Source of the DNA: an uncultured Phycisphaerales bacterium
GTDB taxonomy: Bacteria; Planctomycetota; Phycisphaerae; Tepidisphaerales; Tepidisphaeraceae
DNA: 64,000 nt
Direction of reading: 5' to 3'
NCBI GenBank assembly: GCA_963844715.1
Contig: CAWJPJ010000007.1
Coordinates: 832,001-896,000, forward strand
In this document: positions 45,735 to 63,560 of the stretch, one piece after another
Layout of the letters: the number at the start of each line of letters is the position of its first letter
Position numbering within the stretch: the first letter of the stretch is position 1
The notes under the pieces: generated by a model
What the model was told of the DNA's origin: nothing
The model's input: the letters and a program-made list of their open reading frames with translations, nothing else
The model's database searches: none
Translations under genes and position numbers: made by a program

Positions 45735-46430
45735 TTAATTGTTCCCGGCAAACTCCTGGCTCCACGTGAAACTGGTGACGTAAACGCCTAGGGGATTTTG
45801 AAAGATAGCTCGGGCGGTTTTGGGCGGCACGATCCTGGTGGTGAACAGACCGGTCCAATAGCTGACCGTGGAGCGGGCGCCATTTTCAAAGGCGGTTTCC
45901 CTCCACGCGCACCTGGTAGCTGGCGTCGGAGCGCTGAAGGACGCTGACGATCTCGACGGACATGGTCACATCCTGGTTGGCGGGATCGGCCAGGCCCGCA
46001 TGTGCGCCGTACTCGCTCATGGTCGTGACGGCATCGCCGGCCAGATAGTGATAGGCTTCCTCCCAGTTCTCCTTGAGCACGACTGGATCGGAAGGGCGTG
46101 AGCGCACCTTCCGCACCAGCTCCGCTAAGTGAAAAGCGATCTGGGCGCTGGTAGGAGTGTAGCCGCGATCCAGAAGCTCAACCTGGCCGATCAGCGCCCC
46201 TGCGGGTCCACCTGGGCGACATAAGCTTCGATCCGCGTGCGGCTGGATTGATAGAGCAGGCCAATCGTCAGCACACCGCTGAGGCCAAAAGCGGCGAAGG
46301 CCATCATCCGCCAGTTCTCCGCTTGCACCTGGGCTGAGCCGATGCGCTGGTCCCACGCCTGCCCCGCGAGCGCAAAGGGGGACTGTTCGACTCCGTGTGA
46401 CTGATAGCTGCGCGTTTGTTTTTTGAACAT
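45735..46430 (-). CDS. trbF: TrbF/VirB8 (2 frameshifts)
   Basis: WDQRIGSAQVQAENWR, SDPVVLKENWEEAY, SYQV, NPLGVYV. Confidence 0.88.
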
Positions 46431-46458
46431 GTGCGATTCCTTTGTTGAAAAAAACTTC

Positions 46459-47480
46459 TTATTTGCCATCCGCTTTGGGCGCGCGCCGGCCGCGGTGACG
46501 GACGCACCGGCGGCGACCACGGCGCCGCCCCCTGTAAACATCGAAGCTGCTTTCATCGCGCCCCAGCGCATCGCTTGACCGGCATAGGGCGCGCCCTTCT
46601 TGGCCGCGTCGATGGCGGTTCCCGCGGCATACGCGCCAGCCCCACCGGCCATGACGGCCCCTCCCATGCCGTCGGCGGCCAGACTGGGCGAGCCCGAGAC
46701 CAAATCCGAGCTCATGGAGGTGGCCATGCGGGCCAGGAGCAGCAGCGCCACCGCGCCGATCGCCGCGGCGGTCGCCTGACGGATGGTCAGCGCGTCGGCG
46801 GGGACGGCAGTGACCTGCTGCACCAGATTCAGCCCCAGCGCCATCACCAGGGCGAGAACCATGAGCCTTACGCCGCTGGCGATGAGCCAGCCGATGGGGC
46901 GCTCGGCCAAAAATGCCGTCTTGCTGAGCAGCGCCGTGGGCAGGAGCACGAACGACGCCAGCGAGCCGGCCTTGAACTGCACCAGCGCGAGGAATATCTG
47001 GAACGCCAACATGGCGAAGGCGATGAAGTAAACGAGTGCCGCCAACTCGATGATCATGATCTGCGGCAGGTTCTCGAAGGTGGCGCGGATGCCGGTCAGC
47101 TTGGTCGCCGCCATGATCATGTTCCACGCTCCCGACCAGCCGATGGCGACGACCTGGCCGGGGTTGTAGAACTGCTGGGTGGTGATCGAGGAATTCCCCG
47201 CCTTCATCCCCAAGCTCACAAAACCCTGGCCGACGGTGTTGATCAGCGAGGGCCAGTTCATCACCAGCCAGGCGAAGAAGCCGATGTAGAGGAATCTTCG
47301 CGCCAGCGCCGAGAGCACTTCCTCCTGGCTCAAGGCCCAGGTGAGTCCCGCCAGGGTCAGATTGATCAGCAGTAGGGTGGCGAAGAGCCAGTAGACGTCC
47401 CCCTGGATCAGACCGAAGCCGTGGTCGATGAAGTTGAGCGTGTGCTGCAAAACATCGTTGAGGACATTGCCTTCATCCAT
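46459..47480 (-). CDS. trbL: TrbL/VirB6 (3' end approximate)
   Basis: FIDHGFGLIQGDV, LYIGFF, TAFLAERPIG, many TMs, Gly/Ala-rich tail. Confidence 0.9.
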
Positions 47481-47513
47481 AAATGCTCCTTCGCTCCACG
47501 GAGACCTGGGAAC

Positions 47514-48308
47514 TCAATTTCCAAACGGTTCGGTAACGGGCGCTACGTCGTAGGTGGTCTGGGCGTCTGAGGTGGCGCGGTTGACCAGTTCCTGGTTCCG
47601 CACGTATTCGGCGGATTCTTCGGACTGCTGCAAGGCCAGCGATCGCTGCGTTGCCAGTTCCGCCGCCTGCTGGTCTTGAAGTTGGGCGCTGAGGGTGACG
47701 AGCATCTCGTTGGTCGCCTGGATCGCCGCCGTTTCACCCGGCGCGTTTTGGCTCGCCGTGGCGAGATCACTCATACGCTGTTGCGTGCCGCTCATGGACG
47801 CCACCGACGCCTCCTGCATCTGAATGGCCTTGGCCGCCGCGCCGCGCGCCGCAGAGTTCCACTGGTCGGGGTACTGGGCGATCTGTGTGTCGGACTGGCC
47901 TCGCCAGTCCTGGGGAGCGGGATAGGCGTCGCGGATCAGTTGCGCGATCAATCCGCAGTTGAAGGCCGCGGTGAAGCCGATGGGGTCGGTCGAGCCTTCG
48001 CTTTGCATCTCGCCGCAGAACTGCTGGAGGGTCTGCTGAATCTGCTCCATGATCCCCACCGCCTGCTGGGCATTGGAGATGCTCAGGTGCTGGAGCATGC
48101 GGCTTTCGTTCTGAAGGGATTGGATCTGGTTCTGAATCTGCTGGACCTGGTTATCGATCTCCTGAGCCTGATGCGCCAGTTGCTCGATCAGCAGCGTCCC
48201 ATTGGTCGGGTCATAGACGATCCACTGGGCTTTGGCCCGCGAGGCCAGAATCAAAGGGAGCAGAAACGACCCCGCAAGGACGATATTGCGAATGAAGTTC
48301 TTACTCAT
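47514..48308 (-). CDS. trbJ: TrbJ/VirB5-like
   Basis: Signal peptide, IVYDPTN, NQVQQIQNQIQSLQNE, SQNAPG..AIQATNE. Confidence 0.88.
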   Translation of the reverse strand: MSKNFIRNIVLAGSFLLPLILASRAKAQWIVYDPTNGTLLIEQLAHQAQEIDNQVQQIQNQIQSLQNESRMLQHLSISNAQQAVGIMEQIQQTLQQFCGEMQSEGSTDPIGFTAAFNCGLIAQLIRDAYPAPQDWRGQSDTQIAQYPDQWNSAARGAAAKAIQMQEASVASMSGTQQRMSDLATASQNAPGETAAIQATNEMLVTLSAQLQDQQAAELATQRSLALQQSEESAEYVRNQELVNRATSDAQTTYDVAPVTEPFGN

Positions 48309-48311
48309 GGT

Positions 48312-50772
48312 CTACTCCTTCGTAGTTGAGATTTGGGAACCTGGACTATTCACACTGTCGAGCAGCGCCGCATCCACTCCCCGCGCGGTAAGGAACCGCC
48401 TGGCAAATTCACTCCGCGGGCAGTCGCGGCAGAATCTTTCCGGCGAGCGTGCGGTCACCGTGGGAACTGGCGGCGCACACCGCCAGGGCTACGGGACTTA
48501 ATCCAAGCTCAAAGAGGCGGTCCCCGTCGCGGCTTTGGTAGTAGTAATCGCGTTTGGGGGCTGCGGAGGCGAGGATGCGAAGCTGCTGCTCGCTGAGGCC
48601 AAAGGCTTCATAGACCCGCCGCACGGCCGGCTCCATCGCCCGTGCGTTGGGCAGGAAGATGCGCGTGAGGCAGTTTTCAATCAGCGCCGGCGCGATGGGC
48701 GAGTCGGCGATGTCGCTGAGGCTTTGGGTGGCGAAGACGACGGCGACGTTGCGCTTGCGCAGGACCTTGAGCCATTCGCGGATTTTGGAGGCAAACAACC
48801 CATCCGCCAGAAACACCCACGCCTCATCGAGCACGAGGAGCGTTGGCCTTCCCCCTGTCTCCTCGGCGGCAAAGCGCTCTTCCAGACGATGAAACAAATA
48901 AGTCAGCACCGCGGCGGTGGCGGCTTTGCTCTGCATCAACTGCTCGGTCTCAAAAGCTTGCCAGGTTCCGCGATTCAGTTCGTCTTGATTGGCGTCCAGC
49001 AAGTGGCCGTAAGGCCCTTGCAACGTGTAGCGCCGCAAAGCTTCCTTGGCGGCGCGGTGCTGTAAGAGATTGGTGAAGCTGCTGAGTGTCCGATCTCGCA
49101 CCTCGCTGGCGCCCAGCAGTTCCAATACACGCCAGAGCTCTTCCTTGAGAATTGGATCAGCCTTGACGCCCTCGCGCTCCAGGATGTCGAGGAGCCATTC
49201 CTGCGCCCAGAGCGCTCCGGCGGCTCATGCACGCGCGCCAGTGGCTGAAAGCTCAAGCCTCCTTCGGTCGCGCCAAGATCGTAGTAATCGCCGGCGGCGG
49301 CGAGCGTCAGCACCTTAAAGCTTCCCCCCTTGTCAAAGAAGTAGACCTGCGCCTGCGGGTATCTTCTCCACTGGCTGGCCAGGAAGTTGAGCAGCGTGCT
49401 CTTGCCCGCCCCGGTGGGGCCGCAGACCATGGTGTGGCCGACGTCCCCCTGGAACAGCGACAAACGAAACGGCGTAGCGCCCTTGGTCTGAGCTTGAAGG
49501 AGTACCGGGCCATTCAGGTGCTCGCATCGCCCCGGTCCCGGCCATACGCTGCTGAGAGGGATCAGATCGCAGAGATTCAGCGAGCCGATCACCGGCCTTC
49601 GCACGTCGGCGTAGGCATGACCGGGAAGAGAGCCCAGCCACGCCTCCACCGCGTTGACCGTTTCGATCTTGGAGACCAGCCCCACGCCGTCGATCACGCG
49701 CTGCACCGCCGCCGCCTTCTGATGGGCCTGATGAAGATCGCTGTCCCAGACCGTGACGGTGAGGGTCAAATACCCATAGCTGCACAGGTCCGCGCCAGGT
49801 ATTGCATTGCCTCATCGGCATCGTGCGCCTTGTTGACGCTGTCGCTGTCTTCCAGCGTGGAGGCTTCCTTGGTGATTGTCTCTTTCAGCAGCGAAGCGAG
49901 GCCCTTGCGCTTGGCGAACCACTGGCGGCGCAGGGAGGCCAGGAGCTTTTCAGCATTGGTCTTGTCCATGGGAAGCCAGCGCACGACCCAGCGATACGGC
50001 AGAGGGAGTTGATTCAGGCCGTCCAAAAGTCCCGGCATGGTGCGGTGGGGGTAGGCGCGGATGCTGACGGTCTGGAGATAATCATTGCCAAGCTTTGGCT
50101 CGAATCCTCCGGCTAAACAATCGTCGGTCAGCATCTCATCCAGGTAGAACGGCACGGGCGGGAGCTCGATGTGCAAGTGCCGGCGCGTGGAGACGCACTG
50201 ATGCAAATAGGTCAGCAGGTCGCTTTCAGCGAGCTCCAAAACCAGCGGCATAAAGGAGCGCAGGAGGCCGCCGATCTGGTCCACCTGCGCAGGAAACCTT
50301 CCAGTTCCCGATGATAGTCAAGTCCGCGCAACTGCGCCGCGGACTCGACAAACAGATCGCGCCCACCGGCCAGGCGCTCCTCGGGTGGCAGGTAGGTCAG
50401 AACCAGGGCGTGATCCGATTCAAAATGCGTCTGGTCCGCCTCAAAACTTTTTCGCCGCTCGGCTTCGATCGCTGCGGTGACGGGATCGGGGAATACTGAG
50501 GTCGGGTAATCCTGGCTGGGGCGGCGATGGGCTTCGACGTGCAGGCACCAGCGCGAACCCAGGCGCTTGAGCGCATTGTTCATTCGCGCCCGCACCGCGA
50601 TGAGCTCGTGATCCGAGCAGCTGTCCAAATCCGGCCCGCGGAAGCGATACGCCGCCAGGAATGAGCCATCTTTGTTCAGGACGACGCGCGGGTGAATCAG
50701 GGCCGCCCAGGGGAGGTAGTCACTGAGCTTTTTGCCTTTGCGGCGATATTCGGAGATGTTAAACATGAGCAT
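48312..50772 (-). CDS. trbE: TrbE/VirB4 ATPase (about 4 frameshifts)
   Basis: LPWAAL, NKDGS, GPDLDS, Walker A GPTGAGKS, FDKG, Walker B LDEAW, FATQS; C-terminus rebuilt to TAG at 48312-48314. Confidence 0.93.
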
Positions 50773-51062
50773 CAACCTTCCAAATGAGCGGGCAAACGAA
50801 TCTGACGGCGGAACACGTCCAGCCACAGCGGATCGGCCTTGGTCAGCGCCACCGCCGCCGCGTGCATCGCCAGCCCCAGGGGTACTCCCAGCCACCAAAC
50901 CTGCAAGCCCAAGGACAGGGCCGCGGCCATCGTGCCGTTGAGGATCGCCACGGGTCGGGGCACGCCTCCCATAAGCACCGATTGCGTCAGGGAAATGCTC
51001 AGGGGGATCTCGAAACCTTCGGGCTTTTCCTGATGAAGCGAACTGGTGGCGAGGGTTTTCAA
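50772..51062 (-). CDS. trbD: TrbD/VirB3
   Basis: GFEIPL..SLT..LMGGVPR..ILNGT, DP; TTG start overlaps the trbC stop. Confidence 0.88.
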   Translation of the reverse strand: MKTLATSSLHQEKPEGFEIPLSISLTQSVLMGGVPRPVAILNGTMAAALSLGLQVWWLGVPLGLAMHAAAVALTKADPLWLDVFRRQIRLPAHLEG

Positions 51063-51376
51063 AACGTCAGCCCTCCGGTGAACCCGAAGAAGGTCAGGCC
51101 GAACTGCGCGGCGGCGAAGGCGATGGACAGGCCCAGGACGACCCCCAGTACCCGGCGCAGGGTGCTGCCCCCCTCGCTGAACGCGAAGGCGAAGCCGACC
51201 GAGACAATGGCCAGCACTCCCAGGCCCTTGGCGACAGGGCCGGTGAGGCTTTGGACGATCTGGTCCAGAGGCCCCTCCCAGGGCATATCGGTGCCGGCGG
51301 CGAAGGCGGCGCTGGGGACAGCCAGCGCCATTCCTGCCGCGACTGCCATCAGCAGGCGAGAAGATCTGTGTTTCAT
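51059..51376 (-). CDS. trbC: TrbC/VirB2 pilin
   Basis: Signal peptide, MPWEGPLDQIVQSLTGPVAK, GLSIAFAA. Confidence 0.92.
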   Translation of the reverse strand: MKHRSSRLLMAVAAGMALAVPSAAFAAGTDMPWEGPLDQIVQSLTGPVAKGLGVLAIVSVGFAFAFSEGGSTLRRVLGVVLGLSIAFAAAQFGLTFFGFTGGLTF

Positions 51377-51700: not shown

Positions 51701-53179
51701 CTATGCCCCCGGCGTTTGCTCCTGGTTCCGGGCCTCTGGCTCCTCCCGCAGATTGGATGGCAGCCATGCGTTGAGCTTCGCCGCCAGCTTGGCATCCTCC
51801 ACGCGTCCTTCGGCGGCATCGGTAAACAGCTTGGCAAGCTCCGAAACGAGCTCCGATTTCTTCTTGTTCTCGGCGGCTTTTGAATAGACCGGACCGCGAA
51901 ACTCGCCGATCAGGTGGGCAAGTTGAATCTTCTGGTATCCCGCCAGCCACTTCTCATCGGGACGCCAGTAGCGGCGCACTTCCACGCCCAACTCGACGGC
52001 CAGACGCCAGACCAGTTCCGTTCGGCGTTGCAGGTGGACCGTGATGCACTCGACCGTCAGAAGATCGATCAGCGCATCCAGCTTCTTCTCGGATAGGCGC
52101 TTCACGGCCTCGTAAGCAACATGATCCTCGACGTAGTGCTGGTCATGCAGCGGGTCCAACTCAACCCGACGCTTACGGAGGATGTCGAGCGCCATTGACG
52201 CGAAGCCTTCGGCTCGGTCGGCGTGAACGGTCGTCCCGTTCGCATCATGCCGGATCGAAAGCGCCTCGCTACGCACCTTGTCATGCAGTATCAATGCCAA
52301 AACACGTCTGCAAACTCGGCCGTCTTTGAGCAGAAGTTCGCGGACGGCCAACGCCTGATGCGTGAACGTCGCGGCAAGCTGTGGCTCTTTCAGGTCATCC
52401 GAAGTCGGCGGCTTCGGTGCGACGTGTCCATTGCCCCCATGAACGCCATTGCCCGATGCGTTGCGACGGTTTCGCGGGATACGGTATTCACGTCGCACCC
52501 GACCATCCGGGTCGAGCAACAAGAACGCCGTGCCAACGGCCTTCGTCGCCTCGGCGTAGTGAACCTCGGCATCCTCGGTTAAGGTCTGTCCCTCGTCGTC
52601 CAGCGTTTCCAGCTTCGTCTGAACGTCCTGATATGCCTTTTGCTCCGACTCGCTGAACTCGCCGGGTCCGGCTTCTAGTTCCGCGATCTTCGCCTCCAGC
52701 TTGCTCCGTTTGTGCGCCAGCTTTTCGAGCTTGGCGGTGGTCTGCTGGTCGTACTCCTGCGGCGCATCAGCCATCGAAAATAGCCGATCCTGCACGTCGG
52801 CCTGCGGACCAACCACAACGTCGCCCCAACCTTCCTCGATCAGCTTTTGCCGCTCGGCCAAAAGCGCTTCAGCCTGCGCCTCCATGAACGCCTTGCGCTC
52901 GATCAGCACGCGCTCGGCAAACAGGTCTTTGCTGACGGCGGATTCCGGCAACTTCGACACGTCGAAGGTGGCGGACTTGGCGTCGATCCACGCGTGGGCA
53001 ATCACGTTGCGGACGTGCTGTGCATGCTCTGGGTTGCTGCCGACTTCCTGCCAGACTTCCAATTGACGATCCGCCGGAACGGACGCGAACGCCTCGGCGG
53101 TCGCGGTGTCGATTTCACCTTGGCGGTACGCGGCCTTCACCGGATCGGCCAGAGTTGCCAGCTTCATGCGCTGGCGCAC
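51701..53179 (-). pseudogene. parB: ParB-family protein, C-terminal part (interrupted by RIT1)
   Basis: Begins VRQRMKLATL, second helix of the ParB HTH; joins in frame to 56831-57286. Confidence 0.88.
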
Positions 53180-53265
53180 TTATGTGTTGAGTATATTTAT
53201 GTTGTCAGATCACACCAACCAGTGGCTTCCCTGGACGCGATAGGCTGTTGTGACCACATAATTTT

Positions 53266-54279
53266 TTACAATGCCTGCAAGAACTCCATCAGTTTTGGAT
53301 TGGCTTTCCATGATTTGCGTTTGGACGACCTTGGCCCAGTGAGCTCGCATGTGGCGAGCATTTTTGCTTTGGTTTCCAAGTCGATCTCGGCGTACACGTT
53401 GGTCGTATTGATTGACACGTGACCGAGCCAGGCGCGAATGGTGTTGATGTCCACGCCAGCGCGCAGTAGATGTGTTGCGGTGGTGTGGCGGATCGTGTGC
53501 GGCCCGACTCGCTTCCTGGCCAGCGTTGCGACTTTCCTGCTGGCCGCGTCGACGTGCCGCGACACCAACGCATGAACGCCGAAACGTGTGAGCGGCTCGC
53601 CGCGTTGGTTTAAGAACAGTTTTTCGCCTTCGGCGCGGTTGTCAGCCAGTTCCTTGAGCTTGTCGATCGTCGTGGGCCAGAGCGGACAAAATCGAGTTTT
53701 GTTCCCCTTGCCAACCAAGCGCACCGATCCGGCGCCATCGGCGCGGCGTTCGATATCAGCCAGCGTCACCGCAACTGCCTCGCTCACGCGGGCGCCGGTG
53801 TTGTACAAAAACAGCAGCAGTGCATGATCGCGGCGACCAATCTGGCGCGCAACATCCGGCGCGGCGATCAGAGCGTCAATCTCCGGCTTATCGAGATAGC
53901 ACAGCGCCGGTCGATGGAACCGCTTCGATGGAATAACCCGGATTGCCGAGCACCAGGCGATGTGTTCGGGTGCATGGTCGGCGACAAAGCGAGCGAAGGC
54001 GTGGATGGCGGCAAGCCGCTGGTTGCGAGTACGTATGGTGCATTTGCGCTCTGATTCCAGGTGTGACAAAAAGCTTCGCAACCGATCAGGCGAGAGCGCA
54101 TCGACTGTCAGGCGATCCACCGCCGCACCTGTCTTCTTGGAGACGAAAGGCATCAACTGAGCGAAGGCATCGCGATAACTGCGCTGTGTGTTGCGCGATA
54201 AATTGCGTTCGGCAACCAGATGTTCCAGAAGGAAACGGCGAATCCACGTACCCAGTAAAACGCTTTTTTGTGTCATCAT
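53266..54279 (-). CDS. ritC: RIT1 recombinase C
   Basis: RTRNQRLAAIHAF, YNTGARVSE, GKGNKTR, HTIRHTTA, WLGH..TTNVY. Confidence 0.92.
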   Translation of the reverse strand: MMTQKSVLLGTWIRRFLLEHLVAERNLSRNTQRSYRDAFAQLMPFVSKKTGAAVDRLTVDALSPDRLRSFLSHLESERKCTIRTRNQRLAAIHAFARFVADHAPEHIAWCSAIRVIPSKRFHRPALCYLDKPEIDALIAAPDVARQIGRRDHALLLFLYNTGARVSEAVAVTLADIERRADGAGSVRLVGKGNKTRFCPLWPTTIDKLKELADNRAEGEKLFLNQRGEPLTRFGVHALVSRHVDAASRKVATLARKRVGPHTIRHTTATHLLRAGVDINTIRAWLGHVSINTTNVYAEIDLETKAKMLATCELTGPRSSKRKSWKANPKLMEFLQAL

Positions 54280-55208
54280 CCTGCCATCGGTAAGGCGTAG
54301 TTGCGGAAGAGAGAGCTTGCCTCCTGGGCCAGTTCGCTGGTCAGTTGCAGATAAACCTGCGTCTCGCGAACGCTGCAATGGCCCAGATACGTCGCCAAGC
54401 GTGGTAGTAATTGCTGAACGTTCTTGCCCGCGCGGTACCAGCTAATCAGCCGGTTCACAGCGAAGGTATGCCGCAGATCATGCAACCTCGGCTGAAAGAA
54501 AAAGCTGGTTGGTCGGCGGATTCCAATCTGTTCGCGCAGGAGCTTGTAGCTGTGTTGCGCGGTCTGCTTGGCAATCCGCCGTCCCGTGCGATCGGTTAGA
54601 AACGGCTTGTCATTGCCGGCGTCGCCGGCGCGATGCTTGCCTTGGTAGGCGATCAGCAGACTGCGCAGGTCAGCGCCGATCGGCACCAGCCGGCTTTTGT
54701 AGAACTTGGTCTGGCGGATGGTAAGGATGCTCGCCCGCAGGTCCACGTCTTCCACATTCAGCGCCAACGCTTCGCTGATGCGAAGCCCGCTGCCATATAG
54801 CAGCAACAGAATCGTTCTCATGGTGGCTGGGCTGAGTAACCAACAGTTGCGATACCGCTGACTGGTCGCTTCCAAGAGCGACTTCATCTCCGCGACCGAA
54901 TAAATGTAGGGAATGAACGACCACTGCCGACGAGGCTTGTCCCGCGGCAACGGAGACGCCGATGCGTACTTGCGGCTGATCGCAAACCGATAAAAACCGG
55001 CCAGGGCATGATACTTGGAGAGCCAATAGTTGGTGACGGGGCCATCTCCATCGAGATAGCGGCGCACTGTTTGAGGAGTCACGCGCCGCAGCTCGACATC
55101 GCCAACGGCTCGGGCAAAGGCGTGGAGCAGGCCTTTTTCTCTGCAAAAACCAATGCCCAGTGATTGGCGGTACTCCACGTAACTGTTAACACAGGCCGAG
55201 ACCTTCAT
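54276..55208 (-). CDS. ritB: RIT1 recombinase B
   Basis: PYIYS, GLRISEAL, TKFYKSRLVP, PRLHDLRHTFAV, LATYLGH. Confidence 0.92.
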   Translation of the reverse strand: MKVSACVNSYVEYRQSLGIGFCREKGLLHAFARAVGDVELRRVTPQTVRRYLDGDGPVTNYWLSKYHALAGFYRFAISRKYASASPLPRDKPRRQWSFIPYIYSVAEMKSLLEATSQRYRNCWLLSPATMRTILLLLYGSGLRISEALALNVEDVDLRASILTIRQTKFYKSRLVPIGADLRSLLIAYQGKHRAGDAGNDKPFLTDRTGRRIAKQTAQHSYKLLREQIGIRRPTSFFFQPRLHDLRHTFAVNRLISWYRAGKNVQQLLPRLATYLGHCSVRETQVYLQLTSELAQEASSLFRNYALPMAG

Positions 55209-55218
55209 TCCTGCTCCT

Positions 55219-56559
55219 TCAGGCTACATAACCACACAGTTGCCGCCGAGCGCATCGCGTCGCGCAAAACCGGTCGGGATGCCGAGAGTGTCGGCGCTCG
55301 CAGGCGGCGTTGAACTCGATCAGTTCGCCCAAATCGACGTCGCCCACCGTCATCAAGCTCGTCATATCCACCTTGGCGTAAATCTCAGTGGACTGAACGA
55401 TGGAGTGCCCAAGATGATCGCCGATCTGTTTGAGGCTGAATCCCTCCGACAACAAATGGGTTGCACAAGCATGACGCAAGCCGTGCGGTCCGTAACGCTT
55501 GAGCTTTTGGCCCAGCGACTTCTGGCGGTCGCAGACGACCGTGGCAGCCGACATCAACGGGCGATAAGGCTGAAGCATGGAAATGAAGACCTCTCTGTGC
55601 CGGCAGATGGGCCGGATCTTCAGATAGGCGACGATGGCATCACCCACGGTGGAAATGAGCGGATAGGTTCCGACACGATGCAGCTTCGGCCGTGGCGGAC
55701 GAATGACCCCATTCTCCCAGTCGATATCTTCCAGGCGCAGGCCGCAAACTTCGCCTGAGCGAAAACCATAAACGGCCATCAACAGCATCATCGCGCGATC
55801 GCGAACGTCGACAGGATCGTTGGTATCGGCTGAATCAAGCAGTTCACGGACTTGTGCCCATGTCGGCCCCTGGGGGTAGCGTTCGTGGCGATAGAGCCGC
55901 GGCGCATGGATGCAGTCCCACAGGGTTGGTTCGCAACCGCGCCGACCGCCGAGCCAGCGCAAGAACACGCGCACGTGACAGATATGGCTGGCGATGGAGC
56001 ACCGCGACCATCGCGTGAACTGTGGTTCCTGTAGATAGCCCGTCAACATTCGCGCGTCGAGCTTCCGCAAATCGCCGCCCGGATGTTTGGCCGCCCAGGC
56101 TAGAAACAGGCCAACGTCGCGGCGGTAAATGCCGACGGTACAGGGCGACCATCCATGTTCGGCGCGCTTGAACTCGATAAAACCCTGCATCAGATCATCG
56201 AAAGGCCCGCGGATGAACGAACGTTCCATGCGTCCGCAAAATGCCAGCCAATGTCTTATCCGGCCCAGGAATTTATGGATGGTGGCGGCCGATGGCTTCC
56301 TACGATGCAAGCCGCCGCGAAAGTTGCCGTCACGCCATTTAGGACCCAACGTGCGCAACTGTTCCTCGTTAACAACCTGTCCAGGCTTGAGGTCCAGCAA
56401 TATGGCAGCATGGAGGGTATATCCAGCAGCATGTTTGAACGTCTCCAGCGCGCGGCCATCTTCGACCAGATGCCGCAGGTAACGTTCCCGTTCCTCGCGC
56501 ATCGGGCTTTCGCGGTGCAACTGCAAATGCTTTCGACGGGTGACAAACTGCTCAAACAT
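55219..56559 (-). CDS. ritA: RIT1 recombinase A
   Basis: RDRAMMLL..YGFRSGEV, GPHGLRHACA, IGDHLGH..TEIYAKVD. Confidence 0.92.
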   Translation of the reverse strand: MFEQFVTRRKHLQLHRESPMREERERYLRHLVEDGRALETFKHAAGYTLHAAILLDLKPGQVVNEEQLRTLGPKWRDGNFRGGLHRRKPSAATIHKFLGRIRHWLAFCGRMERSFIRGPFDDLMQGFIEFKRAEHGWSPCTVGIYRRDVGLFLAWAAKHPGGDLRKLDARMLTGYLQEPQFTRWSRCSIASHICHVRVFLRWLGGRRGCEPTLWDCIHAPRLYRHERYPQGPTWAQVRELLDSADTNDPVDVRDRAMMLLMAVYGFRSGEVCGLRLEDIDWENGVIRPPRPKLHRVGTYPLISTVGDAIVAYLKIRPICRHREVFISMLQPYRPLMSAATVVCDRQKSLGQKLKRYGPHGLRHACATHLLSEGFSLKQIGDHLGHSIVQSTEIYAKVDMTSLMTVGDVDLGELIEFNAACERRHSRHPDRFCATRCARRQLCGYVA

Positions 56560-56830
56560 CGCGGAACAAATCGAGATCGGCTTTGCCCGCTGCTTCGGCA
56601 ATGAGGCGTGGACGATCAATTAGTTATGTTGCGAGTATCGGCGTGGGAGTGGAACAGCATTAGCTGATCGAATGATGGCGCACACGGGATGAATCCAACG
56701 AAAATAATGCTCTTGCCGTAACAGATCAGAAGCGAGAAGGCCCACAGACCACAGGAACATCTCTTACGGCCGAGCACATAACTAAACTCAACACATAAGT
56801 ACGATTATGTGGTGGACAACATAACAAGCC

Positions 56831-57286
56831 ATAGGGCTGGCTGACGCCGAATTCGGCGGCGATGGATTCAACGCCTTTCGCTTCCTCCCGCGCCAACTTG
56901 GCGAAGGCTTCGGCTTCGTCCAGCGGGTGCATCGGCTCCCGGATAAAGTTCTCGGCCAGCGCCAAGGCGTCGGCCGTGTCGTCATCGACGGAACGCAGGA
57001 TGCACGGCACTTTCGGCGGTCGCCCCCCCTTGGCTGAATCCTTAAACACGGCGCAGCGCGCTGCCAGACGGCCATTGCCGACAATCACCCGGTAGCCACC
57101 GGCTACTTTGTCATCGGCGCGGACCACCAGCGGTTGGATCAGGCCAAACGCCCGAATCGACGCGACTTTCTGCCGATGGGCGTCCCGTTCCGGCTTGACG
57201 CGGCGGGGATTCCGCTTGTTCGGAATCAGCTTCGACAACGCAACGGAAATCTGAACACCATGAAATTGAGATAGATTGCGAGTCAT
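56831..57286 (-). pseudogene. parB: ParB-family protein, N-terminal part (ParBc domain plus HTH start)
   Basis: NPRR, SIRAFGLIQPLVV, GNGRLAA, ENFIREPMHPLDEAEAF, IAAEFGVSQPY. Confidence 0.9.
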
Positions 57287-58139: not shown

Positions 58140-59262
58140 TCAGATATCCGTCATTTGGAAATCTTGGACTTCCCCGCCTGTGCCTTCGCCTTCTGCGGCG
58201 GAGGCTTTGGCTTCGATGGCCAGTCCCAACGCGCTGTAGTAGGCGGCTTGCTTCAATCGGTGCGATGCGCCGAACCAGACGGAATCGAGCCGACGATTCA
58301 GCTTTTCAGCCGGGTTCAATCCCCGGTAATTCCGCTGATGGTCGGCCCATTCGCTCACCGCGTTGTACGCCGCCCATGCGGTGTGCTTCATGCTGGGGAG
58401 CGTGTTCCGCTCGTTATCGAAATTGGCGAGCAACTGACCGAAAACCTTCTCTCGGCTCTTCTTCTGGCGGTCGGTCCCGCCGGGAACATCCGCACCCGCC
58501 AACCCCCGGAAGTAACCCGATGCCTCGGTTACGCTGAGGTCTTTGGCAAGCATCGCGTGAAGTTCTTCGTCAAACTGGTCGAACCGCGCCGCGATGATCC
58601 CTAACTTGGTGCGGGCCTCGGCAATCCGGCTTTCCAACCGGGGATGATGGGAAATGGTCAATCCGTCCATGCCCGCCTCACGCATGGCCAGATTGAGTGT
58701 GTTCTGACAGACCACGCGCACGGTCGTCGGAATCATCCGAAGCGCCTGGCTTCCGTCGTGAGTGTTGGTCAAGAGAACATAGGGCTTAATCAGGTCGTCG
58801 GCTCCGGCCCGGTATTCCCTGGGAATCCTGCGCCAGCATCCACACGCGCTTACCGCCGTGGAGACTGCCCGCCGTCTCGTATATGGCGAGCTTGTCGCCG
58901 ACCAGCGCATCCATAAAATCGAAGGCTTCCCGATTCTGGAATACGCGGTAACGTCTGCCCACCACGCCCAACACCGCTTTCGTATCGGTGCGAACGTTGG
59001 CGACAAACTCCGGTACGTCCACTTCGACAGGCTCAGTGCGGGCCGCCTCCTGACTATTGTTGTCCGGGTCGCTAGTCGCGCGCTCTGCCGAGCGGAAAGC
59101 CCGGACCGGCCATTGCTCTACGTGCCAATCCAACCCGGCGAGGCTGATCGCCTCGGCGCTGGTGGTTGCCTGTTCGATCACTATGCCCAAGCGATGCCAA
59201 GCAGGCTCGCCCGTCACAAAAACTGCCGCTCGTCCGGTTGTCTGGTCGATCTCGTGTGCCAC
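58140..59262 (-). CDS. DUF932-family phage/plasmid protein (frameshift near 58830)
   Basis: PAWHRLG, AGLDW, YETAGSLHGGKRVW, NTHDGS, VRVVCQNTL, TAWAAYNAVSEWADH; GTG start with GGGAGG RBS. Confidence 0.9.
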
Positions 59263-59375: not shown

Positions 59376-59602
59376 CATGAGATCCATCTGGCTGGCGACG
59401 GGAACGCGAGCGCAGCGGACGAAGGGCATGCCACGCGCAGAGGTTGAGAGTTGCATATGTGCGTTTATGTTGAGTTCCGAATTATTTTTGAGTTCGGCGG
59501 AAAATCCCTGCATTTCGGGGGTTCTGAGCAGAATGGCGAAGCGGTTTGCTTCACATAATCCTGATGTCTTTCTTATGCCCATGTGGCGGAAAGGAAGGCG
59601 TC

Positions 59603-60863
59603 ATGTCTCACGATCTGTTTCTTCGATGTGTTCGCAGGCGGATCAGCGGCAATCCACAGGAACCGCTGTTGGAGCGATTCCTGATTTATCTCACCCAGCG
59701 TGGTTACGCTCCGGGAACGTGGTATCGGCTTCTGCGCATTGCCGATCACTTCGGGCGATGGCTTGGCCCTGGACCTTTGACGTACAAGGCGGCGCAGGGC
59801 TTCCTCAAACGCCATTTGCCGAGGTGCCGATGCACAACGCATTCGCTGCGCAGCCTGCAATGCAATCGCGAAGCGCTGCGGCTTTTGCTTGAGATGGCCG
59901 CAATCACGCCGACTCCGTCGCCAGCCCCCATGCATTTTGCGGATCGGCTGCTGGAACAATATGGACAGCACCTGATACAGGCGAGAGGACTCGCGCCGGT
60001 GACTGTCCATCATCGGTTGGATCTGGCCAGGCGAATGCTTCGACAGTTCCGAGTGCGTCAATCATCACAGTTCCGCGCCTGGACGGCCGCTCAGATCCAG
60101 CAATACATCGCGCGAATGGTGCGTCCTTACCAGACGTCCACCGGCCGCGCCATGACTTCAGCGACTCGCTCGTTCCTATGCTATTTACTGCAAAATCGCT
60201 TGATTCGGCGGGATTTGGCCGCGGCGGTTCCCGCATTGGCCCATTGGCGATTAGCGCCCTTGCCCAACACTCTGACAATCAAGGAGATTGAACGGCTCCT
60301 CAGGGCTGTCCGGCAATGCACCCCGCTCAATCTTCGCGACCGCGCCATTCTCCTGTGCATGGTCGAACTGGGTCTCCGGCGCCCCGACGTGACGGGACTG
60401 GAAGTCATCGGGGTGGATCTGGCCCATCGAGTGTTGCGCCTTCAACATCACAAGGAACGGGAGGCGGCGGCAACGCCCATGACCAGCCGACTGGCAGAGG
60501 CGATTGAAGCGTATCTCCGCAAAGGCCGTCCTGCCTGCCAGTCACCGTTCCTGTTCGTCTCGCATCGCGCCCCGGTTGGCAAGCCCTTGTCCACTGCCGG
60601 CCTTGGACACATCGTGCTCAGGATTGCTGGTCGCGCGAGATTGCAGGGCCGCGTCAGGGGCACCCATATATTTAGGCATAGTCTCGCCAGCCGACTGCTC
60701 GCTTCGGGAGGCGCCTTAAACAAATCGCCGACGTGCTGGGTCATCAGTCGATTGAGACAACGATGATTTATACCAAAGTCGATCTGCCGCGCTGATGCAG
60801 GTGGCGTTGCCTTGGCCCGGGGGCGCCAAAGACAAAACCTCCGCCGGGGAGGTGCGGCCATGA
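59603..60863 (+). CDS. ritA: RIT2 recombinase A (2 frameshifts near the 3' end)
   Basis: RDRAILLCMVELGLR, THIFRHSLA; shifted frames give IADVLGH..TTMIYTKVD and VALPWPGG. Confidence 0.9.
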
Positions 60864-61816
60864 CACACCAACTGACGATGGTTCGCCACGCCAGAGCCTA
60901 CCTTGAATACCGCCGCTCCCTGGGCTTTGCACTGCGCGGTCATGGCAGATTGGCGATGCAATTCGCTCGTTTCCTCGATCGCCGCCGTCACGAGCTTCCA
61001 ACGATCGGCCTGATGCTGCGCTGGGTCAATGGAAAGGGAACGCATTCCCAAAGCTATCGCGCCAGTCGTTTAACGGCGGTTCGCAGTTTTGCACGCTATC
61101 TGGCGGCAAGGGATGAACGAATCCCCATCCCGCCCGCCCGACTCTTATCCGTGAGGATTCGGCGCTGTCGGCCTCACATTTACAGCCCGCTGCAACTTGA
61201 GCAGCTGCTGTCCGCTGCCGGGCGGCTGCATCCTCACTTTGCGCTTCGCCCTTTGACCTATCAGACGCTTCTGGGACTGATCGCCGCCACAGGCTTGCGC
61301 ATCTCTGAAGCCATCAGGCTCCAGCGCGGACAGATCGATTTGAAGCGTGGTCTGCTGGAGATTACGCAGACCAAATTCAAAAAGTCACGCCTTGTGCCGA
61401 TGCACCCGACCACAACGCGGGCCTTGCGCCATTACCGCGATAAGCGCGATCAGCAATGGGGAACACGACAGGAAGCACCATTCTTTCTCAACGCCGCAGG
61501 CCGATATTTGCCATCGGAAACGGTACAGGCTGTATTCCGTCGGCTTTGCGAAGGTCTCGGCTGGCATCGGGGCAACGGCGAATTACCCAAACCACGCCTC
61601 CATGACCTGCGCCACAGCTTCGCCTGCCGCCGCCTATTGATCTGGCATCGCAATGGCGACGACATCGGGAACCGCATCGCCGCGCTGGCGACGTACCTGG
61701 GCCATGGCAGGGTCCGGGACACCTATTGGTATCTCACCGGCACCTCGGAACTGCTTGCCATTGCGGGAGACCGCTTCGGACGATTCGCCGATTCGGCAGA
61801 AGGGAGCAACCCATGA
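60860..61816 (+). CDS. ritB: RIT2 recombinase B
   Basis: RRSLGF, PHIYS, TGLRISEA, TKFKKSRLVP, PRLHDLRHSFA, LATYLGH..TYWYL. Confidence 0.93.
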   Translation: MTHQLTMVRHARAYLEYRRSLGFALRGHGRLAMQFARFLDRRRHELPTIGLMLRWVNGKGTHSQSYRASRLTAVRSFARYLAARDERIPIPPARLLSVRIRRCRPHIYSPLQLEQLLSAAGRLHPHFALRPLTYQTLLGLIAATGLRISEAIRLQRGQIDLKRGLLEITQTKFKKSRLVPMHPTTTRALRHYRDKRDQQWGTRQEAPFFLNAAGRYLPSETVQAVFRRLCEGLGWHRGNGELPKPRLHDLRHSFACRRLLIWHRNGDDIGNRIAALATYLGHGRVRDTYWYLTGTSELLAIAGDRFGRFADSAEGSNP

Positions 61817-62826
61817 AAGCCAAGGAACTTATCCCCACGCTTCCACTGGCGCCGTTACTCCAGAACTATTTTTGTTCTCATTTGATCGGCCAGCGCGACC
61901 TGAGCCGGCGGACGATCCATGCCTATCGCGACACATTCCGGCTGCTGCTGAAGTTCCTGGCTCACCGCTTCAAGTTGATGCCCGAAGCATTGCGCGTGAG
62001 TGATCTGGACCCGCCAAGAGTCCTTGCCTTCCTTGATGACCTGGAACAATCCCGTGGCAACGGCGTTCGCACCCGCAACGCCCGGTTGGTGGCGATCCAT
62101 TCCTTCATGCGCTACATCGCATCCGTCGAGCCGTCGTTGTTGAATGTGGCCCAGCGCATTCTTGCGATTCCCGCCAAGCGATTCGATCGCCCATCCATCG
62201 GCCATCTTACGCGCCAGCAGATGCAAGCCATTCTGGACGCGCCTAATGCCGCGACGCGCGGCGGACAGCGCGACCGTCTTCTGTTGATGATGCTGTACAA
62301 CACCGGCGCGCGAGTGTCGGAGGTGGCGGCTCTTCACGTACACGATGTGCGCCTGGATTCCCAAGCCACGGTGCAGTTGCACGGGAAAGGACGGAAGAAT
62401 CGCGCCGTACCGCTGTGGCGTTCGACAACGCGATTGCTGCGGCAGTGGCTCAAGGACACTGGCGCCGCGCCTGAATCCCCGCTGTTTCCCAATGCACGAG
62501 GCGAGCCGATGAGCCGGCATGGCATCGCCCAGCGCTTGGCAACGGCCGTGGCTCGCGCCTCGAAGAAGTTGCCGGGTTTGGGGAACATCCGCGTGACTCC
62601 ACACAAAATCCGGCACTCCACGGCCATGCACCTGCTGCAATCGGGCGTGGATCTTTCAGTCATTGCGATGTGGCTGGGCCACGAACACATCGAAACAACA
62701 CATCAATACCTGGACGCCGATCTGGAATCGAAGAAACAGGCGTTGGCATGCTTGGATTCACCCCGTCTGCACCGGTATCGCCGCTCTGCGCCCAAACCGC
62801 TCCTTCAGTTCCTGGAAGGCCTGTGA
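61813..62826 (+). CDS. ritC: RIT2 recombinase C
   Basis: RTRNARLVAIHSF, YNTGARVSE, GKGRKNR, TPHKIRHSTAMHLL, WLGHE..TTHQY. Confidence 0.93.
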   Translation: MKAKELIPTLPLAPLLQNYFCSHLIGQRDLSRRTIHAYRDTFRLLLKFLAHRFKLMPEALRVSDLDPPRVLAFLDDLEQSRGNGVRTRNARLVAIHSFMRYIASVEPSLLNVAQRILAIPAKRFDRPSIGHLTRQQMQAILDAPNAATRGGQRDRLLLMMLYNTGARVSEVAALHVHDVRLDSQATVQLHGKGRKNRAVPLWRSTTRLLRQWLKDTGAAPESPLFPNARGEPMSRHGIAQRLATAVARASKKLPGLGNIRVTPHKIRHSTAMHLLQSGVDLSVIAMWLGHEHIETTHQYLDADLESKKQALACLDSPRLHRYRRSAPKPLLQFLEGL

Positions 62827-63560
62827 TTATGTTGAGCCATCATGCACGAGAACCCCCGAAATGCAGGGATTTTCCGCCGAACTCAAAAATAATTCGGAAC
62901 TCAACATAAACGCGCAGGCCCGCAGCGCTGTACTCAGCGTGAGGAACCGAGCATGGCAAGGCCGTACTCGGCCGGTGGCGTTTCGATAGCGGAGTCGAGC
63001 TAGACGTGCTGCGTAGGCCCGCTGCATCTGGTCCCGGCGCGCGCGGGGGCCTTTCAACAACTTAGCGGGCCTACCCTCCACCCCATGTTCCCGGCGCCAT
63101 CCTTATTGTTTCCGACAGTCATCACACCGGATTGACGGCCAAGGAGAGGAGGTGCGGAGGAGAGGACCGGCCTGAGGTCCTCTTCTCTGCATTCGCATTT
63201 CTTTATTTATAGAATGGCAAGCAGGGGCGTTTCTCTCGGTCGATAGTCTTGCGCTGTAATGGATATATGGCCGGTTTTAGCGTCGGGTCAGGAGAGCGTG
63301 ATGGTCACGACTTCCATCCCCTACGGTGTACCAAATGGCAGTGGACGCCGTATACCGCATTTTGCGGGTTGAGCTTGGATGCCGATTCTCGAAAAGTTTT
63401 TTTTAATCCAAGGGACGGCGGTCGCATTAATCTCCTAAAATCTCCAAGTAGTAACAGCGGCTGTATTGATATTGCCCTCCTCATCATGCTACGCCGGGTT
63501 GCTGTCAAGTGAACTGATTCATTGCGCATGCGGCCGCACTGTCCCGAAAGGAGACTCATC

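Follow-up and report, generated by a model that had tools for sequence, protein, structure and literature searches.

A RIT element in a planctomycete parB gene carries a 20-bp end module and six donor bases on one side of its target

The interrupted parB gene and the anatomy of RIT1

We analysed a stretch of 64,000 nucleotides (the window) from the genome of an uncultured Phycisphaerales bacterium, in which a parB-family gene is interrupted by RIT1, a mobile element of the recombinase in trio (RIT) family. Published RITs consist of a ritA-ritB-ritC trio, span about 3.5 kb, end in a 28-bp terminal inverted repeat, occur as identical copies within a genome, and insert in genes of other mobile elements (PMC3414803, PMC2864759, PMC8138268). 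The assembly of this genome (G000) holds four copies of RIT1, here called W (the one in the window), X, Y, and Z; C7 and C8 denote contigs of this assembly, and L followed by a number denotes a locus used for comparison. The interrupted gene and copy W comprise the following features, in window coordinates.

51701..53173, minus strand: 3' part of the parB-family gene (codons 155-644 and stop), 88% identical to intact ParB homologues of 643-647 amino acids (aa)
53174..53179, minus strand: native target hexamer GTG CGC (V-R), adjoining the ritC-side repeat end; inside the HTH_ParB match (residues 133-196) of homologue P0001
53180..56798, minus strand: RIT1 core, 3619 bp from repeat end to repeat end; four genome copies, 99.8-99.9% alike
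53180..53202, plus strand: terminal inverted repeat, ritC side, with two TTATGT sites; a third, inverted, at 53256
53266..54279, minus strand: ritC, tyrosine recombinase of 337 aa, R/HxxRH/H-Y motifs intact
54276..55208, minus strand: ritB, tyrosine recombinase of 310 aa, motifs intact; ATGA overlap with ritC
55219..56619, minus strand: ritA, tyrosine recombinase with a long N-terminus, motifs intact; 446 aa from the ATG at 56559, 466 from a TTG
56776..56798, minus strand: terminal inverted repeat, ritA side; third site at 56624
56799..56804, plus strand: inner hexamer GTACGA between repeat end and module; a parB V-R hexamer, also found at the ritA end of copy Z
56805..56824, no strand: 20-bp module, belonging to the element, with TTATGT/ACATAA as its inverted arms; three exact genome copies, each beside a RIT1
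56825..56830, plus strand: foreign hexamer CAAGCC (G-L in gene sense), identical to the native GH28-gene hexamer that flanks copy X (G000:C7:1357886-1357891)
56831..57286, minus strand: 5' part of the parB gene (ParB_N domain, codons 1-152)

RIT1 is a member of the RIT family. PF00589 matches all three of its genes, which are adjacent, co-oriented, and ordered A (long), B, C, and the R, HxxRH, and H..Y catalytic motifs are present in RitA, RitB, and RitC of W. The window RitC is up to 58% identical to the C genes of annotated plasmid trios. While ritB and ritC overlap, ritA and ritB are separated by a 10-bp gap, compared with the 4-8-bp overlaps of the family. The three recombinase open reading frames (ORFs) fill the element, and there are no Xis, conjugation, or tfp/srap-type genes inside. 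The repeats pair 53180-53202 with 56776-56798, and the 28-nt repeat, of a length within the 28-34 bp usual for the family, is 89% identical between the two ends.

An earlier note, made from the sequence alone, had proposed that the element can be removed to restore an intact gene, and all its coordinates are correct: deletion of 53180-56830 (3651 bp) gives a 644-aa ParB ORF reading FGVSQPYVRQRMKLA. The alternative cut, 53174-56824, also gives 644 aa, reading QPYGLQRM. Only 1/6 bases are common to the two flanking hexamers (GTGCGC and GGCTTG in gene sense), so there is no target duplication. The intact protein has no additional residues at this position: 99 of 104 full-length homologues could be parsed (5 could not), and all have the same spacing and read Y-[V/T/I]-R-[Q/R]-R there, with G-L in 0/99. 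What was incomplete was the description of the element's end. The boundaries at 53180 and 56824, followed by CAAGCC, are rightly placed, but the repeat stops at 56798 and is followed by a hexamer, the 20-bp module, and only then CAAGCC. The self-complementarity of the module (at least 8/10 arm positions) is matched by 0.07% of random 20-mers of the genome.

Origin of the hexamers

The three other copies of RIT1 lie on two contigs.

G000 C7:1354242-1357885: copy X, interrupting a GH28 gene
G000 C8:838928-842570: copy Y, its core facing the opposite way to W and X in target sense
G000 C8:1780-5398 (L003): copy Z, between two different parB 3' halves set back to back, without the module

The hexamers are heterologous, differ between copies, and derive from a former insertion site, as the earlier note would have them. 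The four copies carry different hexamers, so CAAGCC is not a fixed end of the element. It is instead the ritC-end flank of copy X, where it encodes G-L in the GH28 frame; four uninterrupted GH28 paralogues have G-L (3) or G-F (1) at this position and never V-R. The outer hexamer on the module side of X is in turn the parB V-R hexamer, and W and X thus hold each other's target bases. A random hexamer would equal the native flank of X with p ~3e-4, and any of the eight junction hexamers of the other copies with p ~3e-3. The GH28 gene cut by X belongs to a tandem GH28 cluster with PEP-CTERM-like tails (L001:87-11071). Copies X and Y contain frameshifts that are possibly assembly errors.

Read in target sense, W, X, and Y share one layout: 5' half, foreign hexamer, module, hexamer, core, native hexamer, 3' half. 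Under the rule that the circle takes the donor's native hexamer, W accounts for both hexamers of Y, whereas the rule that it keeps the foreign hexamer gives a full match in 0/6 ordered copy pairs. Of all the copies, W and Y are in addition the most alike: 4/5 shared single-nucleotide polymorphisms (SNPs) group them against X and Z. A chain of hops from D0 to X to Z2 to W to Y would fit every hexamer. It needs two states that are absent from the assembly: a full Z2 insertion, and a donor with a ritA-end/GTGCGC/parB junction. We predicted this junction before examining the contigs of four runs of one study, possibly that of the source sample, and it is present in a contig of run X1. This contig collapses several RIT1 copies, and its two ends may come from different ones. 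Its new RIT1 flank was not found in G000, which is 85% complete.

Copy Z is different, in that both parB 5' halves are missing from the assembly. The same form—no module, and one target half on both sides—is known from a complete plasmid (L096/L109) and from L005 and L007, so that an assembly error need not be invoked for copy Z. Its origin may be homologous recombination between two copies, or an attack on a second target by the inner junction of an integrated copy.

The native hexamer lies at the repeat end

We regarded a case as decided when its outer hexamers differ and an uninterrupted allele or homologue tells which of them is native. The native hexamer lies at the repeat end in 9/9 decided cases (W, X, L056, L052, L104, L087, L114, L125, and L231). 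For L056, all five empty alleles agree (5/5). L052 was decided by one near-identical empty allele, L104 by a 99% allele, and L125 by a sister allele. Homologues settled L087, where F-R-G occurs in 0/62 parsed sequences (of 80) and F-R-F in 5, and L114, where H-E-N-G occurs in 2/2. For L231, one of three alleles matches the repeat-end hexamer and two match neither. Two further donor-recipient pairs, L115 to L114 (Paraburkholderia) and L104 to L106 (Mesorhizobium), also carry the donor's native hexamer.

The alleles decided nothing for L065 (the closest matches neither hexamer), L079 (0 matches), L227 and L230 (no close allele), and L234 and L235 (matching neither). Cases in which the hexamers differ but are synonymous or undecided were kept outside the tally (Y, L004, L115, L008, L033, L035, L036, and the RIT2 copy on C8, see below), and some 20 elements with an identical hexamer on both sides, including the Escherichia coli set, cannot decide. 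A scan of 301 GTDB genomes for multi-copy RITs gave one match each in 11, on fragmented contigs.

RIT2 and the neighbourhood of parB

A second element, RIT2, lies 2.6 kb from RIT1 and has the same 6+20+6 block.

59433..59464, plus strand: RIT2 module block (outer hexamer 59433-38, 20-bp module 59439-58, inner hexamer 59459-64)
59465..62909, plus strand: RIT2 core, same build as RIT1; second copy at G000:C8 ~832797-836243
62910..62915, plus strand: native hexamer ACGCGC on the repeat side of RIT2

One contig of run X1, with 39 letters on its short side, omits exactly 59433-62909. This empty-site contig lacks the module as well as the core, and the module therefore belongs to the element. We rejected the idea that the module is target DNA or a free mini-element, because in G000 it is found only beside RIT1 and it departs with RIT2. 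On C8, a paralogous island has the other RIT2 copy at the same position, where both the core and the module are turned round.

The island around the interrupted parB also contains trb-type conjugation genes, ssb, and DUF932. The trb-type genes (46191-51376 of the window) include a TrbC pilin, a VirB4-like ATPase spread over several ORFs, and a TrbL that runs into a VirB8-like part; they are either decayed or split by assembly indels. All four runs have one additional base in the RIT2 ritA at 60710 and at 60787, and two runs lack the base at 58829 in the DUF932 gene; the frameshifts at these three positions are probably assembly errors. We found intact parB islands in 0/400 other genomes of the phylum.

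The module in other RITs

A protein search gave RITs outside G000, and of the 35 whose two ends could be resolved, 27 have the module (26 single, 1 double). The count was made by eye, and several of the elements are kin. It excludes 11 trios with unresolved ends (L012, L013, L015, L016, L017, L034, L111, L112, the second trio of L114, the first trio of L120, and L226), partial or broken loci, and L006, L101, and L102, where the module is present and the far end lies outside the sequence. Unrelated lineages whose arms differ in sequence have the 6+20+6 spacing too, and L084 and L121 have double modules.

A pattern search for a repeat end, six bases, and a module returned 55 viral loci: 27 beside rit genes, 18 near the end of the locus, and 10 neither. 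Four loci (L049, L068, L069, and L075) show the pattern with no rit gene in the available DNA and are possibly miniature elements or scars. In L093, L100, L101, and L102, a RIT of E. coli plasmids with one extra gene inside interrupts a DNA methylase gene, facing either way, and the module of L093 is flipped.

Targets appear to be conserved codons

All eight junctions with a parB 3' half (8/8) have the repeat end there, at V-R codons, and all four parB-family 3' halves of the assembly are interrupted at the insertion codon. The targeted parB gene has 61% GC. A related RIT, 70-75% identical, lies at the same parB codon and in the same polarity on an Acidobacteria contig (L004), and all three of its hexamers are V-R codon variants. 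A junction scan of metagenomes gave three matches, of which two are real (two contigs, with two further parB junctions) and one is a chance match. Hops from one parB to another leave synonymous V-R codons as footprints, as in copy Y and L004.

The unrelated sites of RIT1 share TA just before the hexamer and RTGA at +7 to +10 after it; seen at three unrelated sites, this is only a hint of a target preference. Other RITs likewise interrupt istA, istB, ritB, ltrA, methylase, and phage genes, and it looks as if RITs target conserved codons of mobile-element genes. In Mesorhizobium (L103, L104, and L125), a RIT lies at the catalytic L-R-H codons of the ritB of another RIT, itself nested in the ltrA gene of a group II intron. 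Many viral contigs carry a member of one RIT lineage, facing either way, in a single conserved coding stretch (L046, L052, L061, L063, L065, L080, and L088). This stretch may be the end of a portal gene.

A proposed two-junction circle and its alternatives

We think it probable that RIT1 moves through a circle with two junctions, that it places six donor bases on one side of the target, and that its insertion in parB is a knock-out at a hotspot and not a switch. As read from the sequence, the anatomy of the element, the origin of CAAGCC, its one-sided placement, the fixed polarity towards the target, and the lack of homology are demonstrated. For the route of movement, we infer a circle, a single-strand exchange resolved by replication (copy-out, with the donor kept), and a division of labour among RitA, RitB, and RitC.

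The mobile unit would consist of the repeat-bounded core, a 6-bp spacer, and the 20-bp module. Its circle (core, six bases, module, six bases) would have two junctions, each made of a repeat end, 6 bp, and the module, and either could recombine with a target read as half 1, 6 bp, half 2. For integration, the exchange would fall where the 6 bp meet the repeat end and would require no homology. The product would always be half 1, foreign hexamer, and module, through to repeat end, native hexamer, and half 2. The element could thus face either way, the module always joining the same target half: opening the circle at one or the other junction would give both core orientations with the module order unchanged. 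On exit, exchange at the opposite edge would make the circle take the donor's native 6 bp. Each step would need no more than one strand exchange with resolution by replication, as in SE elements. The assignment of edges to integration and exit follows the standard chemistry of tyrosine recombinases.

With slightly more doubt than confidence, we further suggest that RITs represent a form of strand-biased transposition not described before. The module would provide the circle with two interchangeable attachment junctions, and one recombinase would cut beside the repeat end for integration and another beside the module for copy-out. If so, an integrated copy would keep a ready junction (repeat end, six bases, module) able to attack a second target in place, and such attacks would delete or weld mobile-element genes and give the module-less form of copy Z.

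Several observations weigh against this interpretation. One of the five shared SNPs groups W and Z against X and Y. A single hop from X does not yield W, which requires an unseen intermediate at the Z2 site, and the assignment of ends to copies rests on a single, incomplete assembly with indel errors. Among the resolved RITs, 8/35 lack the module: in three, the two sides carry one target half in inverted orientation, and the other five simply have no module, three of them with an insertion sequence (IS)-like end abutting. Relative to the core, L093 has its module turned round compared with L101, as has L008 compared with L009, and a simple circle leaves this unexplained. In the side test, one case, the first element of L108, leans the opposite way by one synonymous base, although its flanks are chimeric. 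The sign test gives p 0.002 for 9/9 and p 0.011 for 9/10 when L108 is counted, which overstates the significance slightly because W and X are one element. Finally, a search of the run contigs for empty parB alleles and circle junctions showed no RIT1 circle and no empty RIT1 site; contigs drop rare forms.

The alternative that survives best, and that we still regard as unlikely, is a Tn916-like cut-out. Both strands would be exchanged, the circle and the empty site would carry heteroduplex hexamers, and the side bias would result later from replication or repair. It would account for heterologous hexamers, the lack of duplication and of homology at the crossover, and the catalytic motifs kept in all three recombinases, and the empty RIT2 site in run X1 agrees with it, though this site was possibly never occupied. 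Homology-independent chemistry, which the earlier note had likened to that of Tn916, agrees with the foreign and native hexamers, which have 1/6 bases in common at both W and X. The Tn916 part of the claim is not supported: the foreign hexamer is on the module side in all the decided cases (an indirect reading, from fixed insertions), the donor's native hexamer is carried in all three donor-recipient pairs, and one parB codon is targeted repeatedly, in contigs of Planctomycetota and Acidobacteria. AT-rich DNA is all that Tn916 requires (PMC5812530); the RITs instead strike specific codons, in genes rich in GC.

Still less probable is that the junction pattern is largely secondary: near-identical copies would have undergone homologous recombination or gene conversion once inserted, or the assembly would be chimeric, and the module would be a scar. 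Copy Z, joining two different parB 3' halves without module or 5' halves, points in this direction, as do the module-less forms with the same half on both sides, the double modules of L084 and L121, and the SNP that conflicts with the copy tree. However, recombination between cores cannot place a GH28 hexamer between module and parB, and these three lie within 32 bp, where a repeat could not mis-join them. The recurrence of the 6+20+6 spacing with different arms in unrelated lineages and the departure of the RIT2 module with its element also argue against a scar.

The suggestion of the earlier note that RIT1 is a reversible switch or mutator of the island ParB has very little left in its favour: both cuts do give a 644-aa frame, and every genomic parB-family 3' half is struck at the insertion codon, but any six-for-six swap keeps the frame at any site, so that in-frame excision is trivial and no support for a switch, the homologues never have G-L, no empty RIT1 allele appears in the run contigs (which counts for little), and RIT1 also inserts in the GH28 gene and one further site while other RITs strike the variety of genes listed above. 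A knock-out at a hotspot in the helix-turn-helix domain fits better than regulation. By analogy with SE-6283, a rare true excision of RIT1 would more likely leave G-L than restore V-R.

Comparison with known systems

RIT1 shares with the family the order of the gene trio, the size, the repeats, the catalytic motifs, and near-identical copies, and nothing sets it apart. Published accounts of RIT ends mention a 28-9-bp repeat, an 'overlapping palindromic sequence', and variation in end sequence (PMC3414803), as well as imperfect palindromes, with no circle resolved (PMC5737581). The 6+20+6 module, the two junctions, and the one-sided donor footprint are absent from the end descriptions in the available portions of three papers (PMC3414803, PMC2864759, PMC8138268). 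Our literature search, which did not extend to Ricker 2013, gave no description of the module as a part in recombination or of a 6-bp footprint for RITs. Ricker 2013 and a later thesis reportedly treat the palindromes at RIT ends and target preference, and part of our findings on the ends may already be in print.

RITs are common—RitC is matched in 538 of 72,556 plasmid records—and their mechanism was open in the 2023 literature, where Table 1 of one paper lists target specificity, empty site, and movement as not tested (PMC10214605). This genome offers a readable series of hops, with reciprocal footprints and an intact copy, which, together with exact predictions of the circle junctions, make the mechanism directly testable. 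The one-sided rule sets the correct boundaries of RITs, 26-32 bp beyond the usual repeat, and lets their hops be ordered in any genome. Recombinases that target conserved codons without homology in the spacer are also of interest to tool builders.

The SE elements (SE-6283/Tn6283 and SE-6945) are alike in that the circle takes the donor's own 6 bp, which end up on one constant side at the next insertion (PMC5991714, PMC10214605, bioRxiv 2022.09.22.508988). SE-6283 has one spacer type in the circle, empty sites at <0.1% of circles, and foreign 6 bp in 17/19 cloned empty sites (PMC5991714). SEs likewise cause no duplication, need no homology, and have selected targets, and their footprints reveal the order of hops. 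Unlike RITs, they contain four genes (intA, tfp, intB, and srap), their circle has a single junction, and their rule depends on the left and right ends of the element, whereas the RIT rule follows the module and the target polarity, with two usable junctions and either orientation.

Tn554 also has three genes, tyrosine recombinases, a specific target, and no duplication, and carries 6 bp of the donor flank (PMC10214605). Only its TnpA and TnpB are recombinases, TnpC being auxiliary, while the third RIT gene encodes a tyrosine recombinase, and the sections of its description at hand include no end module (PMC10214605).

Tn916 and CTnDOT likewise use tyrosine recombinases, and their 6-bp coupling sequences need not be homologous (PMC5812530, PMC5991714). 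In contrast with RITs, these papers describe one Int with Xis, conjugation genes, heteroduplex joints in both products, and empty sites about as frequent as circles. Tn916 picks AT-rich sites without site specificity (PMC5812530, PMC5991714), whereas the footprint of RIT1 is one-sided and eight junctions fall at one parB codon. On this comparison, the footprint of RIT1 appears to resemble the copy-out of SE elements and Tn554 rather than Tn916.

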